IMG/VR virus record: IMGVR_UViG_3300029267_004181
Length of the DNA stretch: 64,000 nucleotides
Strand: one strand, 5' to 3'
Origin: an uncultured virus (IMG/VR IMGVR_UViG_3300029267_004181)
Taxonomy: Duplodnaviria > Heunggongvirae > Uroviricota > Caudoviricetes
This document shows, piece after piece, positions 2,761 to 6,839 of this stretch. Below the pieces are notes generated by a model, which had not been told where the DNA came from, searched no databases, and saw only the letters and a list, made by a program, of their open reading frames with translations. Both the position numbers and the translations under genes were made by a program. Positions within the stretch are counted from its first letter, which is position 1, and each line of letters starts with the position of its first letter.

Positions 2761-2860
2761 CCGAATCCCTAGGGTAGCTACTAACACCAGTTTCACCCGC
2801 AGCATGAGTCAAATCGCAGCCACAGCTGCCCACCCAGACTGCTTTGCCAATATGCGCAAC

Positions 2861-2930
2861 TACAACGGACAAGTAATGGATAGTCTTTTCGTGTTTTCAA
2901 AACATGTAGACTATCCGGCATTCCGTTGCA
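2861..2930 (-). ncRNA. Short Y-RNA-like unit 4 of array (Ro-binding module without tRNA domain)
   Basis: UGCAAC GGAAUG CC GGAUAGUC UACAUG UUUUGAAAACACGAAAA GACUAUCC AUUA CUUGUCC GUUGUA. Same scaffold as the adjacent YrlA. Confidence 0.85.
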
Positions 2931-2937
2931 ATATGAA

Positions 2938-3003
2938 GACGGGACAAGTGGTTGCGCAGTCATGTCGATGGTATCAGCATGTAGACTGCACAGCATTCCC
3001 GTC
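2938..3003 (-). ncRNA. Short Y-RNA-like unit 3 of array
   Basis: GACG GGAAUG CU GUGCAGUC UACAUG CUGAUACCAUCGACAU GACUGCGC AACCA CUUGUCC CGUC. Confidence 0.85.
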
Positions 3004-3019
3004 AGAGCCTTCCGATCAA

Positions 3020-3087
3020 ACTGGACGAGTAGTTGCCTGGTGGGTATTGGCCGTTGTTGTGCCATGTACGCCAGGCTGCATTCCAGT
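3020..3087 (-). ncRNA. Short Y-RNA-like unit 2 of array
   Basis: ACU GGAAUG CA GCCUGGCG UACAUG GCACAACAACGGCCAAUACC CACCAGGC AACUA CUCGUCC AGU. The outer stem can extend via CGAUC/GAUCG (3094-3090/3017-3013). Confidence 0.82.
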
Positions 3088-3110
3088 ACGATCGTGGAGG
3101 AGATGACGTG

Positions 3111-3180
3111 TGGCAGGACAAGTGGTTGCTCAGTCAGTTGCAGTATCAAGTAGCATGTAAACCGAGCCGCATTCCTGCCA
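3111..3180 (-). ncRNA. Short Y-RNA-like unit 1 of array
   Basis: UGGCA GGAAUG CG GCUCGGUU UACAUG CUACUUGAUACUGCAACU GACUGAGC AACCA CUUGUCC UGCCA. Confidence 0.85.
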
Positions 3181-3188
3181 AGATGAGA

Positions 3189-3218
3189 CCGCAACGAACA
3201 AGCGTCATTTCGTTACGG
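3189..3218 (-). ncRNA. Minimal 30-nt Y-like hairpin (outer stem and conserved motif only)
   Basis: CCGUAAC GAAAUG ACG CUUGUUC GUUGCGG. GGAAUG/CUUGUCC is changed to GAAAUG/CUUGUUC, a compensatory G-C to A-U substitution. Confidence 0.65.
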
Positions 3219-3228
3219 CTGAAAACGA

Positions 3229-3368
3229 TGAAGTGGACAAGAAGCGCGTGGTCACTTTCCGTATTCTACCAATTGAACTACCGCCCCGAGTTGGTGGCAG
3301 GGCGGACCGGACTCGAACCGGCAACCGCGGGCTTACAAAGCATGTAGACCACACTGCATTCCACTTCA
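3229..3368 (-). ncRNA. yrlA: YrlA-type Y RNA with circularly permuted tRNA-like domain
   Basis: Begins 4 nt after the Ro60 stop codon. Terminal stem UGAAGUGG/CCACUUCA, then 8-bp stem GUGUGGUC/GACCACGC. T arm GCCGG-UUCGAGU-CCGGU precedes acceptor stem CCGCCCU/GGGGCGG (closed by a loop), followed by D arm GUUC-AAUUGGUA-GAAU. The T-acceptor-D order is diagnostic of YrlA. Confidence 0.93.
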
Positions 3369-3372
3369 ATGC

Positions 3373-4947
3373 CTACTGTCCGTCTATTGTAATCGCATCA
3401 ATCTCCTGAAGCCAGAGATTAGGATCATCCGGATTCTGACCGTGCTCCAGAAAATCAACGATTACAGACCAGAGCTGATTGCTCCAGCCGCCCAGATTCA
3501 GGACATCAGCTTCGTCCGCTGCCTGGGTACTAGTGTCAGGCTGAAGATCCAAGCACACCATGCGCAGATGTGGAACCTTCTGCTGCAGCTGGCGGAAACA
3601 CCGCATTGTTTTGGTAGCGGCTGAGGAGCCACGCGAATCCGCCCAGGACTCGTTGTCACTGAGCAGAATAACATGATCTGGCTCGAAACCAGTGTCCAAC
3701 GCCCAAGCCAGGGGAATCGAAACTGACGTTCCTCCGCCTCCCCGCTGACTAAGCTGCTCAGCAGTAGTCAAAATCGGATTCATGCGGTCGATCCGTATAT
3801 CGTACCGCTTCGTGTCGAACGGAATCACTTGTGCGTCAGGATTCCGCTTCGCCACGACAGCGGCCAGCAAGCAAGCCACGTCGGTGCAACAAAGCTTACC
3901 GGTTGCCGAACCCCGCCAACCTGTAACCGGGGAGCCCATCGAGCCAGACACGTCCACACCCAGCAACACCTTTCCAGCTGGAACTTTCACATACGCAGTT
4001 ACGTATTCCATAGCGGCGTGCAGCGCATCCAAAATCGGCTGTGGAGCGGTTATGCCGAACTTGTACGCCGACACCAGCTCGTGAGGAAACGGCTTGAGCT
4101 TGCTGATCGTCTCTTCGTCGGCAATCTTTTGAGCAAGAATCTCAACCGTTTCAGGATCATCCAGAACCTGATGACGATGAAACGTGTTGAGCTGCTTGAC
4201 AGCTTGCCGCCAACCGGCACGACGAGCTATGAGCTTCCAGTGCTCAGGCTTGAGATCCAGCGCTGTCAACAGCTCCCAGCGAACGTTTGGCAGCTCCTCT
4301 GTCTCGCCGGCCTTGAAGGCCTCGTACGCTCTGACAACGTCTGGCACGCCTTCTTTGCCGATGATATAGCCGTACAGCGCCTCTCGCTCGGCATTCGCCG
4401 GCTTGGGATGCACCATCTTGATGATGTCGGCTATGCTCACGCCGCCGGCGGACTTGCCACCTACAGCGTCACCAAACAGCTGATACTCAGACCGGCTATC
4501 AAGCCACTGTCTGATACATCGCTTGAGCACGCGGCCAAAGCTCTTACGACCAACGACATCCGATCTGAGAATCTGACAGAAGCCGCGCAACATGCGGCTG
4601 TTATGTACTATCCTTGGAAACACGGTTTCCGTCAGTGCGATATCACAGGTGCTGAGGTACGCTAGTAGCAAAGCAGGCATGTCCTTCATGCCATGCTCTG
4701 CCGCGTAGATCGCGCACTTGGCAATCCAGCCGGCTTCGCACTTTGCGGCCGTGTTCAGCGCCTCTTTCAGGCCGTCTTGACCTGATTTGTAGTACGAACC
4801 ACCACCCGGCAGAGTGCCGGTTACAGCCAACTGCGCAAGCGCGTGACGCACCGTGAACGCATACGCAGTACCGCCTGCTTCGTTGACTGTATCAGTCCTG
4901 GGAATATGCTTCCCAGGAGCAGACGAAAACAACTTCTTGTCTGGCAT
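3373..4947 (-). CDS. rsr: Ro60 / TROVE-vWA RNA-binding protein (Rsr), 524 aa
   Basis: N-x-AGG-x-AY, LAQLA-x-TG, MKDMPALLLA, RMLR-x-F-x-QI-x-RS-x-x-VGRKS-x-G and ADIIKMVHPKP motifs. C-terminal vWA MIDAS elements VDVSGSM, GGGT and LSDNESW. Confidence 0.96.
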   Translation of the reverse strand: MPDKKLFSSAPGKHIPRTDTVNEAGGTAYAFTVRHALAQLAVTGTLPGGGSYYKSGQDGLKEALNTAAKCEAGWIAKCAIYAAEHGMKDMPALLLAYLSTCDIALTETVFPRIVHNSRMLRGFCQILRSDVVGRKSFGRVLKRCIRQWLDSRSEYQLFGDAVGGKSAGGVSIADIIKMVHPKPANAEREALYGYIIGKEGVPDVVRAYEAFKAGETEELPNVRWELLTALDLKPEHWKLIARRAGWRQAVKQLNTFHRHQVLDDPETVEILAQKIADEETISKLKPFPHELVSAYKFGITAPQPILDALHAAMEYVTAYVKVPAGKVLLGVDVSGSMGSPVTGWRGSATGKLCCTDVACLLAAVVAKRNPDAQVIPFDTKRYDIRIDRMNPILTTAEQLSQRGGGGTSVSIPLAWALDTGFEPDHVILLSDNESWADSRGSSAATKTMRCFRQLQQKVPHLRMVCLDLQPDTSTQAADEADVLNLGGWSNQLWSVIVDFLEHGQNPDDPNLWLQEIDAITIDGQ

Positions 4948-5246
4948 TTCACGTCCTCCCTTCCTTTTTTAACGGCAGACTCGGCCACTTCCCACTTGAC
5001 GGTTCCTTGTAAACCACCAAGGAACAGATTCTCAGACCCAACGAGCTCACCGCTATCGCCGAGCTTGAGAGCGGCCTTCTCCGGCTCCCCGCCGTGATAA
5101 TCATACCCACGATGGTAATCAGCGCGCCGCTCAATTTCGCCGCAGGCTTCGCTTAACAAGGAGAGGAGCACGCAGGTATTTACCTGATCAGTACGACCTG
5201 GTACTATCAGATCGCCTTCCACTTCCACTTCCATGATGAACTTCAT
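4821..5246 (-). CDS. Hypothetical protein upstream of rsr (3' end overlaps rsr by about 127 nt)
   Basis: Strong RBS AGGAAGGAGG before ATG 5246 (MKFIMEVEV). The true 3' end is uncertain. Confidence 0.6.
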   Translation of the reverse strand: MKFIMEVEVEGDLIVPGRTDQVNTCVLLSLLSEACGEIERRADYHRGYDYHGGEPEKAALKLGDSGELVGSENLFLGGLQGTVKWEVAESAVKKGREDVKCQTRSCFRLLLGSIFPGLIQSTKQAVLRMRSRCVTRLRSWL

Positions 5247-5261: not shown

Positions 5262-5917
5262 AAAAAATGTAGAGCAGCTTGAGCTCCAGGCTCTTAAATT
5301 GCAACCCGTACCGCTAATGGCGATCCACATATCGCCATACCCAGCGGGCAGTGGAAGCCAAGCCCTTCTGCGCCCAAGCTGCTCTACAACACGAAAGACC
5401 TTGGAATGGCAGATATTCAATTTTGATCCGCCACCTGAGAGCTAGGCCTCTCAGCTCGCATTGTCTCACCTAGAAACAATCCGAGACCAAAGCCTTTCAT
5501 GGACTGTTCCGACAGATGCTGAGATTCCGACCTGGCCAGATGCTCTGAACAGCCTGCGCTGGCTGATCAGCAGTCTGGGCACCGTGTACGCCTCGGGAGA
5601 GCCCGATATTTAACCCAGGCTGGTGCATAGGTACTCAGCGGCCTCTGTTACCGGCTGACGTTGACGCCAGCCTTCTGCCGGACAGCTTCAACCGAGGTTC
5701 CAGCGCGCTCGCGTATCATGGCCGGACTCACTTCTGCTGGCGCGCTGGAACCACCAAACTGAAATCCAGACATATTCTGCCCGTGTGGCCAGCTCATAGA
5801 GGGTGATATATATGCCTGGAATCAAGTTGTGCTCCAGCACGCTCAGGGGCAGTAACATGTCATCGGCGGGAATGGTAGTGCCGGAGCTGATTATAGCCGC
5901 AGTCCTCACACAACTTG
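5262..5917 (-). ncRNA. Candidate large structured RNA, or cluster of six closed RNA domains
   Basis: Back-to-back closed domains: 5823-5917, 5765-5820, 5696-5752, 5504-5685, 5391-5500 and 5268-5388, the last followed by U6. Closing stems are 9-17 bp, with G-U pairs consistently on the minus strand. No credible ORF. Confidence 0.65.
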
Positions 5918-5985: not shown

Positions 5986-6267
5986 TTACCAACCCCAATC
6001 GGGACTCAGTAGCCCCATGATCGCGGCGACCGCTACATCAAGGCATTCCGAGTCAATCGCCGCACGGGTCCCGGAATGCACGGCCTCGCGCAACTCCGCC
6101 ATCTCCTCGTCCAGTATCCCGAGCAGTTCATGGCGGCTTGCTAGCTGTCTGCGGCCCTTCTGCCGTAGGCGCATTTCCAGCCAGCGTTGGACTCGGTAGA
6201 GGATCTCGTCTTCAGCATCTTTCTTGATCTGTGGGCGTTTGATCATTGGTCTTGGCTCCTGGCTCAT
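5986..6267 (-). CDS. MazG-like all-alpha NTP pyrophosphohydrolase, 93 aa
   Basis: Acidic EE-x-x-E...E-x-x-DVA pattern (LDEEMAELREAV...SECLDVAVAA). GGAGG RBS. Confidence 0.6.
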   Translation of the reverse strand: MSQEPRPMIKRPQIKKDAEDEILYRVQRWLEMRLRQKGRRQLASRHELLGILDEEMAELREAVHSGTRAAIDSECLDVAVAAIMGLLSPDWGW

Positions 6268-6839
6268 TCGTCCTCCGGCAGCACTCCCGCCTTGCGGGCG
6301 GCGTCAATGGCGTTGAACAAGCGGCGGCACGCTACGCCATGCTGCGTTCGCAACGCATGAGTATCCCGCCACTCTGCCGCCGCCTCCAGCACCTCGGCCA
6401 ACTTCAGCATACGCCACAAAGCGTGACGACCGAGCTTGATGGCCTCACAACGTTCGGCGTATATACTCCATGTTCCCTCGATGGGCCTGCCTTCAAGCAT
6501 CGCATCAAGATAGGCAATTGCTTCTGCTTCACTTGTCTTCATTCTTACCCTCCATTGGTAAAACCCCCGCCTTATTGGTAAAACCCCCGCCTTGCGGGCT
6601 GCGTCGATGGCTTGGCATAGTCGTACAAGCTCATCCGGTGCGGGCGGTTCATGGCAGCGCCACGCATCATATATCTCAAGCGCCGCCTCCAGCACCTCGG
6701 CCAGGGGGGCGACGGGCTGCCATTGGCCGCAAAAGCTATCGGCGAACTTGAGCGTGGTATTTGGCGAGTGACAGCACGCCCCTAGACGGCCCGCCAATGA
6801 GTGCCAGTGTATGCACGTCTCGCACCTATCCGGTCTCAT
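6264..6839 (-). CDS. Hypothetical protein; apparent fusion of two paralogous genes (internal start at 6542)
   Basis: Two copies of LAEVLEAA-x-E...AIDAARKAGVLP. N-terminal C-x-x-C-x-x-W...CG-x-W motif. Internal RBS and ATG at 6542. Confidence 0.7.
   Translation of the reverse strand: MRPDRCETCIHWHSLAGRLGACCHSPNTTLKFADSFCGQWQPVAPLAEVLEAALEIYDAWRCHEPPAPDELVRLCQAIDAARKAGVLPIRRGFYQWRVRMKTSEAEAIAYLDAMLEGRPIEGTWSIYAERCEAIKLGRHALWRMLKLAEVLEAAAEWRDTHALRTQHGVACRRLFNAIDAARKAGVLPEDE
6554..6593. repeat. Perfect 20-nt tandem duplication
   Basis: ATTGGTAAAACCCCCGCCTT at 6554-6573 and 6574-6593. Confidence 0.95.

Follow-up and report, generated by a model that had tools for sequence, protein, structure and literature searches.

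A run of about 650 nt on the minus strand of an uncultured tailed phage, upstream of its Ro60 gene, is rich in potential RNA helices, and raises the question of whether it encodes one large ornate non-coding RNA linked to Ro60 or a polycistronic set of small RNAs. The window, i.e. the whole stretch of 64,000 nt that was analysed, is part of a tailed phage in which capsid, baseplate and sheath families were matched. A second record (G001) overlaps the window and extends 68.8 kb beyond window position 1; this extension is designated locus L118. The minus strand of the 676-nt stretch was folded at -293.9 kcal/mol with a z-score of -6.30 (none of 20 shuffles folded as well) and its plus strand gave a z-score of -3.32, in agreement with the strand favoured in the initial annotation, all the helices of which were present in the sequence. 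Three of the five minus-strand helices of at least 13 bp found below position 6000 lie inside the stretch. Its description as ORF-free held for plausible genes only, as a few short mechanical ORFs overlap it and the longest stop-free run reaches 80 codons. Contigs of four DNA runs, which may be the source of the window DNA, contain the stretch without any internal variant.

The fold revealed six closed domains, d1 to d6, with 205.8 expected base pairs inside domains against 21.7 others, the latter nearly all involving d1 or the flanks. This near absence of inter-domain pairing points to a string of beads rather than one interlocked fold. The linkers between domains are 1 to 12 nt long and a single U tract is found at the end of the run. 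In d1, the outer helix of the initial annotation (5917-5823) and the inner stem have one base in common and compete. The heptamer GCAGAAG recurs as three different things, a d3 spacer, a d4 stem strand and the d6 K-turn, and closed units of similar kind recur across the next 10 kb. The stretch is quite probably a compound transcript of small RNAs in a stable-RNA and RNA-repair region of the phage, whose 5' third would be a satellite sub-array of stem-loop TIGR units and whose 3' two-thirds would be made of d4, d5 and d6. The alternative of a polycistronic set thus gained support from the independent domains, the guide anatomy of d2 and d3, and a TasA gene about 9.9 kb away. The coordinates of the features are given in Table 1.

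Table 1. Positions of the domains and neighbouring features (window numbering unless prefixed L118).
Feature	Position	Strand or place	Remarks
d1 inner stem, probable degenerate stem-loop TIGR unit	5829-5887	minus	relaxed scan only
d2, most likely stem-loop TIGR unit	5765-5820	minus	third profile score in 132.8 kb; strict scan
d3, most likely stem-loop TIGR unit	5696-5752	minus	perfect boxes; top profile score in 132.8 kb and maximum possible
d4, 184-nt multi-branched RNA	5503-5686	minus	z -3.2
d5, 112-nt four-way junction	5390-5501	minus	z -7.9
d6	5262-5388	minus	17-bp closing stem, K-turn, 6-bp helix, 12 x 17-nt internal loop, apical helix, U6 tail
TATAAT, possible -10 box for the transcript	5890-5895	minus	seen in sequence, weak; no good -35 box; no call in promoter scan
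141-aa ORF	4821-5246	minus	strong Shine-Dalgarno, overlaps Ro60 start; may be mis-bounded or not a gene
Ro60 (Rsr) gene	3373-4947	minus	Pfam vWA_Ro60, E 4.5e-19; best relatives 46-47% identical
YrlA (3366-3228) and four short Y-like RNAs	2860-3366	minus	YrlA 57.3 bits (E 3e-11), short of the gathering score of 69 bits
e2, further candidate stem-loop TIGR unit	2348-2403	minus	before RNA ligase gene; fifth profile score in the phage, within shuffle range at that threshold
RNA ligase gene	1443-2309	minus	Pfam RNA_ligase
RlaP nucleotidyltransferase	about 1143-181	after RNA ligase	Pfam RlaP
Five or six stem-loop TIGR units	L118:3953-4383	directly before tasA	two strict, rest with box changes
tasA	L118:4414-5250	beyond window position 1	sequence and fold matches

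Comparison with Rfam gave no match of the stretch at the gathering threshold and none that was meaningful at E<=10, so that the search proposed in the initial annotation left the region without a family. Blastn of the whole stretch against 50,697 phage records returned one 27-nt chance match and no homolog; blastn and nhmmer against 82 loci returned no homolog, and 27 records with a related capsid protein gave two short chance matches only. RNase P, SRP, 6S, tmRNA, 5S, group I intron, and hammerhead, pistol and hairpin ribozymes were dropped by eye, the core motifs, as we take them to be, being absent.

The 5' third of the stretch was compared with the guide RNAs of TIGR-Tas systems, in which a box C, a spacer and a box D occur twice (as defined in the available part of PMC12045711). 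This succession was found in d2 and d3, and in both a palindromic stem of 10 to 13 bp takes the place of the edge repeats. In d3, box C (CCA, 5740) is followed by spacer A (5737-5729), AG, a 5-nt loop, a second CCA (5721), spacer B (5718-5710) and AG, in a perfect 13-bp stem whose innermost pair joins the C of box C and the G of box D. In d2, the order is UCA (5806), spacer A (5803-5795), AG, a 4-nt loop, CCA (5788), spacer B (5785-5777) and AA; its stem measures 10-11 bp and the U of box C could pair with the A of box D. These two units and the hairpins of L118 share the layout YCA, 9 nt, AG, short loop, YCA, 9 nt, AG in a stem of 10-15 bp. In d1, box C (5875), spacer A (5872-5864) and box D (AU, 5863-5862) are followed by a second box C (UUA, 5855), spacer B (5852-5844) and box D (AG, 5843-5842), so that d1 carries two box changes, and d2 one together with a slipped AU run. 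The z-scores of the domains were -1.3 for d1, -2.3 for d2 and -3.8 for d3. A CUU, the processing mark expected at the stem base, lies at most 8 nt from an end in five of nine units, d3 not being among the five, a count made without a chance control.

A strict box scan, whose motif was chosen after the units had been seen, yielded 20 matches in the phage, four of which lie in a stem of at least 8 bp: d2, d3 and two units adjoining tasA. Sixty shuffles gave a mean of 0.25 and a maximum of 2 such units. As the motif had been read off these very units, an independent test was carried out with boxes from other phages. Of 286 related viral tas loci, the 80 best were taken for the profile; 79 of these come from other records, and 72 of the 79 carry 18-nt periodic arrays. 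The profile summarizes 1317 half-units as C (0.76), C, A, eight free bases, G (0.88), A (0.89) and G (0.69), the letters CA being fixed by construction through an anchor on CA at 17-19-nt spacing and the six scored positions being the analyst's choice. Ranking both strands of 132.8 kb, with a stem required, placed d3 first with 21.1 bits, followed by a tasA-side unit (18.5), d2 (16.3), a second tasA-side unit (12.7) and e2 at 2390 (11.2). Four units reached 12 bits, compared with a shuffle mean of 0.17 and maximum of 1 (30 shuffles); at 9 bits the five units observed are within the shuffle range (maximum 5). When the stretch alone was shuffled 2000 times, two units never arose. Given their anatomy and this box match, d2 and d3 most likely represent stem-loop TIGR guide units, which would be processed and loaded as such. 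The first half-site of d1 scored 8.0 bits, the unit was not called by the profile, and the relaxed scan that called it makes 33 matches in the phage; with one good half-site and no profile call, d1 is probably a degenerate unit of the same type. An 8.1-bit half-site at 5918-5905 (minus strand) overlaps the 5' strand of the d1 outer helix and may be what is left of another guide unit.

A Nop-domain Tas protein is encoded in the same genome, within a clade whose arrays carry the same boxes (boxes from 72 of 79 related loci). Its sequence matched TasR (9mty, E 8e-12) and TasH (21kl, E 7e-11), its predicted structure (pLDDT 91) had Tas proteins as all of its top 10 fold matches, and Pfam gave a weak Transposase_20 match only (E 0.025). 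As no nuclease domain is present, the protein was classed as TasA. It is the sole tas copy in 132.8 kb of a 169-kb contig, the remaining 36 kb or so of which could hold another. The gene is downstream of the stretch, and d3 is 9,869 nt from its start, so that d1-d3 do not form an array adjacent to tas. Since other units do adjoin tasA in L118, d1-d3 are classed as a satellite sub-array and not as a canonical array next to its tas gene. Spacers of 8-12 nt in stem-loop units, and the splitting of arrays into sub-arrays, are described in the available part of PMC12045711, where the sub-arrays are about 450 nt apart, against 9.9 kb in this phage. Guides lying 10 kb from tas imply that array counts made near tas can miss units; the taxonomy step of the TIGRFinder preprint, in its available part, took flanks of at most 10 kb. 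Published TIGR locus tables (Faure table S1; TIGRFinder annotations) may already include this tas and its adjacent units. No tas was detected in 50 other phage records related by Ro60 or capsid, in a search run without a positive control, suggesting that TIGR and Ro60 are not a recurring pair, and no paper joining a TIGR array with Ro60 was found.

The likeness to the stem-loop TIGR-TasA systems (PlTasA, Faure et al. 2025, PMC12045711; BlTasA and MbTasA, bioRxiv 10.64898/2026.09.09.750476; all from the available portions of these texts) extends to two 9-nt spacers between box C and box D in a variable palindromic stem, a nuclease-less Nop-domain protein, split sub-arrays and a short C-terminal tail. 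In contrast with them, one sub-array here sits some 9.9 kb upstream of tas and is joined to structured RNAs of unrelated kind that precede the Ro60 operon, and the nearest relatives of the protein carry dual-repeat arrays; box D is AG here and UG in TaTasR. Wherever an array is visible at a related Tas locus, it is of the dual-repeat kind. Seven loci without a long chain were inspected by eye, five having short dual-repeat arrays and two none; among nine metagenome loci inspected, mostly distant (about 27-31% identity), repeat arrays of this same kind were seen in eight and no array in the remaining one, a contig of 1.3 kb. When stems close to related tas genes were sought without a motif, no box signal emerged, and stem-closed units numbered one against eight on the control strand, which is explained by the dual-repeat nature of the arrays there. 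The dual-repeat TIGR-TasA of related phages (loci L127-L205) share with this system a protein 42-54% identical, the CCA / G-AG code and 9-nt spacers, and the 4-nt loops found here resemble their loop repeat; they differ by fixed edge and loop repeats, an 18-nt period and a Y/H tail, whereas here 10-15-bp stems replace the edge repeats and the tail is cut short.

The tail motif P-aromatic-x-H-x-H/D is kept in 115 of 119 homologs, with the aromatic residue and a histidine mostly seven residues apart, a stricter pattern being found in 62 of 79 locus proteins only. This spacing is that of the processing pair Y289/H296 of SpTasH (available part of PMC13421893). The tail of this TasA is the shortest, with 30 residues against a median of 41, and ends six residues after the tyrosine, so that the protein is without a C-terminal Y/H processing loop; the same is reported for all stem-loop Tas clades in the available part of bioRxiv 2026.09.09.750476. 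In a quick tree of 31 rows, the protein falls in a group with a support of 99 that includes 24 rows labelled dual-repeat, apart from six more distant ones, four labels (L258, L270, L284 and L285) being based on chain count or kinship and not on inspection; an earlier quick tree of 67 rows placed it on a long branch. Both trees were made without any published stem-loop Tas. On these sequences, we lean slightly towards an independent conversion, in which this TasA would descend from dual-repeat ancestors and have lost the Y/H tail as its guides became stem-loops. Published work places dual-repeat Tas in one clade and stem-loop systems in separate clades, leaving open how one architecture arises from the other and how stem-loop guides mature. 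If the conversion is true, this TasA and its dual-repeat relatives, about 50% identical in sequence, would provide a near-matched pair that makes both questions testable, this TasA being the member that has stem-loop guides and a cut tail.

Guide transcription, processing, loading, repression and targets are proposed by analogy. As in published systems, a host RNase would cut the precursor in the linkers and each 55-60-nt hairpin would be loaded on a dimer of the nuclease-less TasA. Each of the two 9-nt spacers would then pair with a different strand of an 18-bp DNA site, and the binding may block transcription with no cleavage of the DNA, the likely targets being host defence genes or rival elements. 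Repression of transcription by a nuclease-less TasA in a reporter test is reported in the available part of bioRxiv 2026.09.09.750476. The domains d4, d5 and d6 would be three separate RNAs of the same transcript, which the closing stem and U tract of d6 would end; d6 probably belongs to a small uncatalogued K-turn family and would most likely be a protein-bound stable RNA. No site for eight units was found in the 132.8 kb of phage DNA with up to two mismatches. The predicted d3 site occurs six times in GTDB genomes, about 17 occurrences being expected from a uniform estimate, and in viral contigs with no perfect and 42 loose matches; the predicted d2 site occurs once in public collections. 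No conserved target was found for d2 or d3, the matches in public collections being at chance level.

The domains d4, d5 and d6 are folded RNAs matching no catalogued family. The novelty proposed in the initial annotation stands for these three and falls for the d1-d3 portion, which most likely belongs with a known phage guide-RNA system. Homologs were sought with models R1 (d5), R2 (d6) and R3 (d4), for each of which a single domain was entered as two identical copies, making it equivalent to a single-sequence model of low sensitivity, some runs being made without a positive control. No homolog was found for d4 or d5; a three-motif pattern from d4 had three other matches in viral contigs, with a fold unlike that of d4. 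The four-way junction of d5 is very stable, and a 6-bp kissing interaction is possible between its loops at 5473-5468 and 5447-5442; for any single specified pair of loops, the uncorrected chance of such a match is 0.002. None of d4-d6 showed a clear likeness to the tRNA-like RNAs of the phage, and no match was found in the loci searched for a tRNA-like origin of the d6 stem.

In d6 (z = -5.0), a 3-nt bulge (5371-5369) and G-A and A-G pairs lie between the 17-bp and 6-bp helices, making it the best of 14 K-turn candidates in the phage under the pattern that we take to be that of a K-turn. One other copy was detected among 49 records (40.1 bits, in the 269-kb phage record G029), and none in 48 more, the latter searched without a positive control. 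Only one homologous sequence is at hand; its alignment comes from a model that favours pairs, and its E-value is rough. Of its 11 outer pairs, six are unchanged, one has a one-sided change, three have two-sided changes and one is broken; the inner helix keeps 6/6 pairs with one two-sided change, giving four two-sided changes overall. The K-turn, the loop strands of 12 and 17 nt and the U tract are kept, and in the best fold of the copy itself the inner helix is shifted. The copy is isolated, just where a series of small genes ends, about 180 kb from the Ro60 gene of that phage, and had no match in Rfam or the phage database. As no tas, related capsid protein, d4 or d5 was found in G029 (the tas and d5 searches having no positive control), d6 appears to be a mobile, separate RNA. 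The second copy offers a start for a family model.

The Ro60 partners are most likely YrlA and the four Y-like RNAs downstream of Ro60: the stem motif GGAAUGC/CUUGUC is present in all five and absent from d1-d6. A Ro-binding stem motif of the GNCGAA type is described in the available part of PMC4201824. The four short RNAs that follow YrlA are about 75 nt long and keep the Ro-binding stem, the tRNA-like part being absent. Searches for homologs of the 141-aa ORF found none. In another phage with a related capsid protein (record G019), about eight Y-like RNAs, only some of which have tRNA-like arms, lie upstream of a distant Ro60 (L117:2140-2860).

Several readings compete with that of a compound transcript. 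A single RNA of about 650 nt of the GOLLD/ROOL kind, folding and perhaps multimerising as a whole, or d4-d6 (430 nt) alone doing so, would account for the short linkers, the one terminal U tract and candidate loop-loop contacts within d5 and from d4/d5 to d6; its overall size and phage location also recall these RNAs, which occur near phage tRNA islands (available part of PMC12286853), tRNA-like genes being present in this region. Against it, the domains fold independently rather than as one chain with inter-domain helices and pseudoknots, no full-length homolog was found in which covariation could be sought, no GOLLD, ROOL or other Rfam model matched, no helix encloses the whole, a third of the length consists of guide units, with d2 and d3 explained as such, and d6 occurs without d4 or d5 in G029. 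We consider this single RNA, the first claim of the initial annotation, unlikely; apparent large ornate phage RNAs can be mosaics. Slightly less doubtful, and still rather unlikely, is that a rearrangement left d1-d3 stranded as decaying TIGR units that go unused, with just the tasA-side units at work. The distance of 9.9 kb, the box changes in d1 and d2 and the failure to find targets are compatible with decay, but the boxes and 13-bp stem of d3 are better than those of any unit adjoining tasA, and the tasA-side units are equally irregular.

It is very unlikely that d6 mimics T-box Stem I as a free-standing RNA, whose large-loop triplet would bind a tRNA anticodon and shield it from host anticodon nucleases. 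The parts of d6 follow one another as in Stem I, with a basal K-turn, a short helix, a large asymmetric loop and an apical part (available part of PMC6197855), a likeness that is topological only. The phage region is rich in tRNA-repair genes. In both copies of d6, a triplet lies between CAA and AA, two bases ahead of the helix, presumably the place where the specifier codon sits in Stem I; the triplet differs between them, its middle base being the same, in two sequences only. Neither copy has, in the spellings that we take these motifs to have, a T-box bulge, an AG bulge, a GGUGnRA loop or an in-loop AGUA, and d6 gave no T-box match in Rfam. The K-turn pattern is present in both copies, but the loop has no S-turn motif, and neither the distal pair of interdigitated T loops nor the antiterminator with its T-box bulge was found (features from the available part of PMC6197855, spellings assumed by us); a long stem and a U tract close d6 instead. 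A wider scenario, unlike the conversion taken by itself, would be just as long a shot: the phage itself would have converted the array, lost the tail and scattered guides over 10 kb among Y and tRNA-like RNAs, one precursor would give both DNA-silencing guides and tRNA-protecting RNAs, and d6 would found an anticodon-binding K-turn family resembling a free T-box Stem I. That the domains serve as additional ligands of Ro60, in the manner of small RNAs located upstream of Ro60 in other organisms, is extremely unlikely. They share the strand of Ro60 and lie 300-950 nt upstream of it, each with paired ends as in Y RNAs (YrlA, Yrl1/2), and phage phiLo has Y-like RNAs upstream of Ro60 (available part of PMC12135203), but d1-d6 contain no GGAAUGC, CUUGUC or CGAA motif, no T loop and no tRNA-like arm, the motif-bearing Y-like RNAs of the phage sit downstream, and no similar RNA was seen near the other viral Ro60 loci searched. 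With the d6 homolog so far from the Ro60 of its own phage, the link to Ro60 suggested in the initial annotation lost its support.

Other structured RNAs were observed in the same region. A family of 120-160-nt RNAs (L118:1261-1383, 1548-1681 and 1878-2034; window 2752-2592, minus strand) combines a common acceptor-like stem, a T-arm-like end and a CCA that reads UCA in the window copy with unrelated middles; the three L118 copies gave pairwise z-scores of 3.7-8.3, and no ARAGORN or Rfam call was obtained. Two tRNA-like genes (L118:1692-1870 and 2181-2332) have a D arm, a T arm and CCA, a large multi-hairpin insert replacing the anticodon arm. In a further tRNA-like gene (L118:330-430), the 5' acceptor strand is unpaired with the 3' strand; it lies 2 kb from a Thg1-family gene (L118:2350-3153, Pfam E 4.5e-25), raising the possibility of 5' editing of the tRNA-like gene by a phage enzyme. 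Closed multi-branched RNAs lie between repair genes (window 1432-1303, 1284-1171 and 2586-2460, minus strand; L118:2092-2175 and 6439-6595), and the one at 1432-1303 has two box-like half-sites with no adjacent stem. Many ORFs of the virion region (window 22000-60800, minus strand) contain long poly-serine runs. At L120:4894-4983, a perfect 14-bp palindrome is repeated 76 nt apart near AT-rich DNA and could be an origin or an operator.
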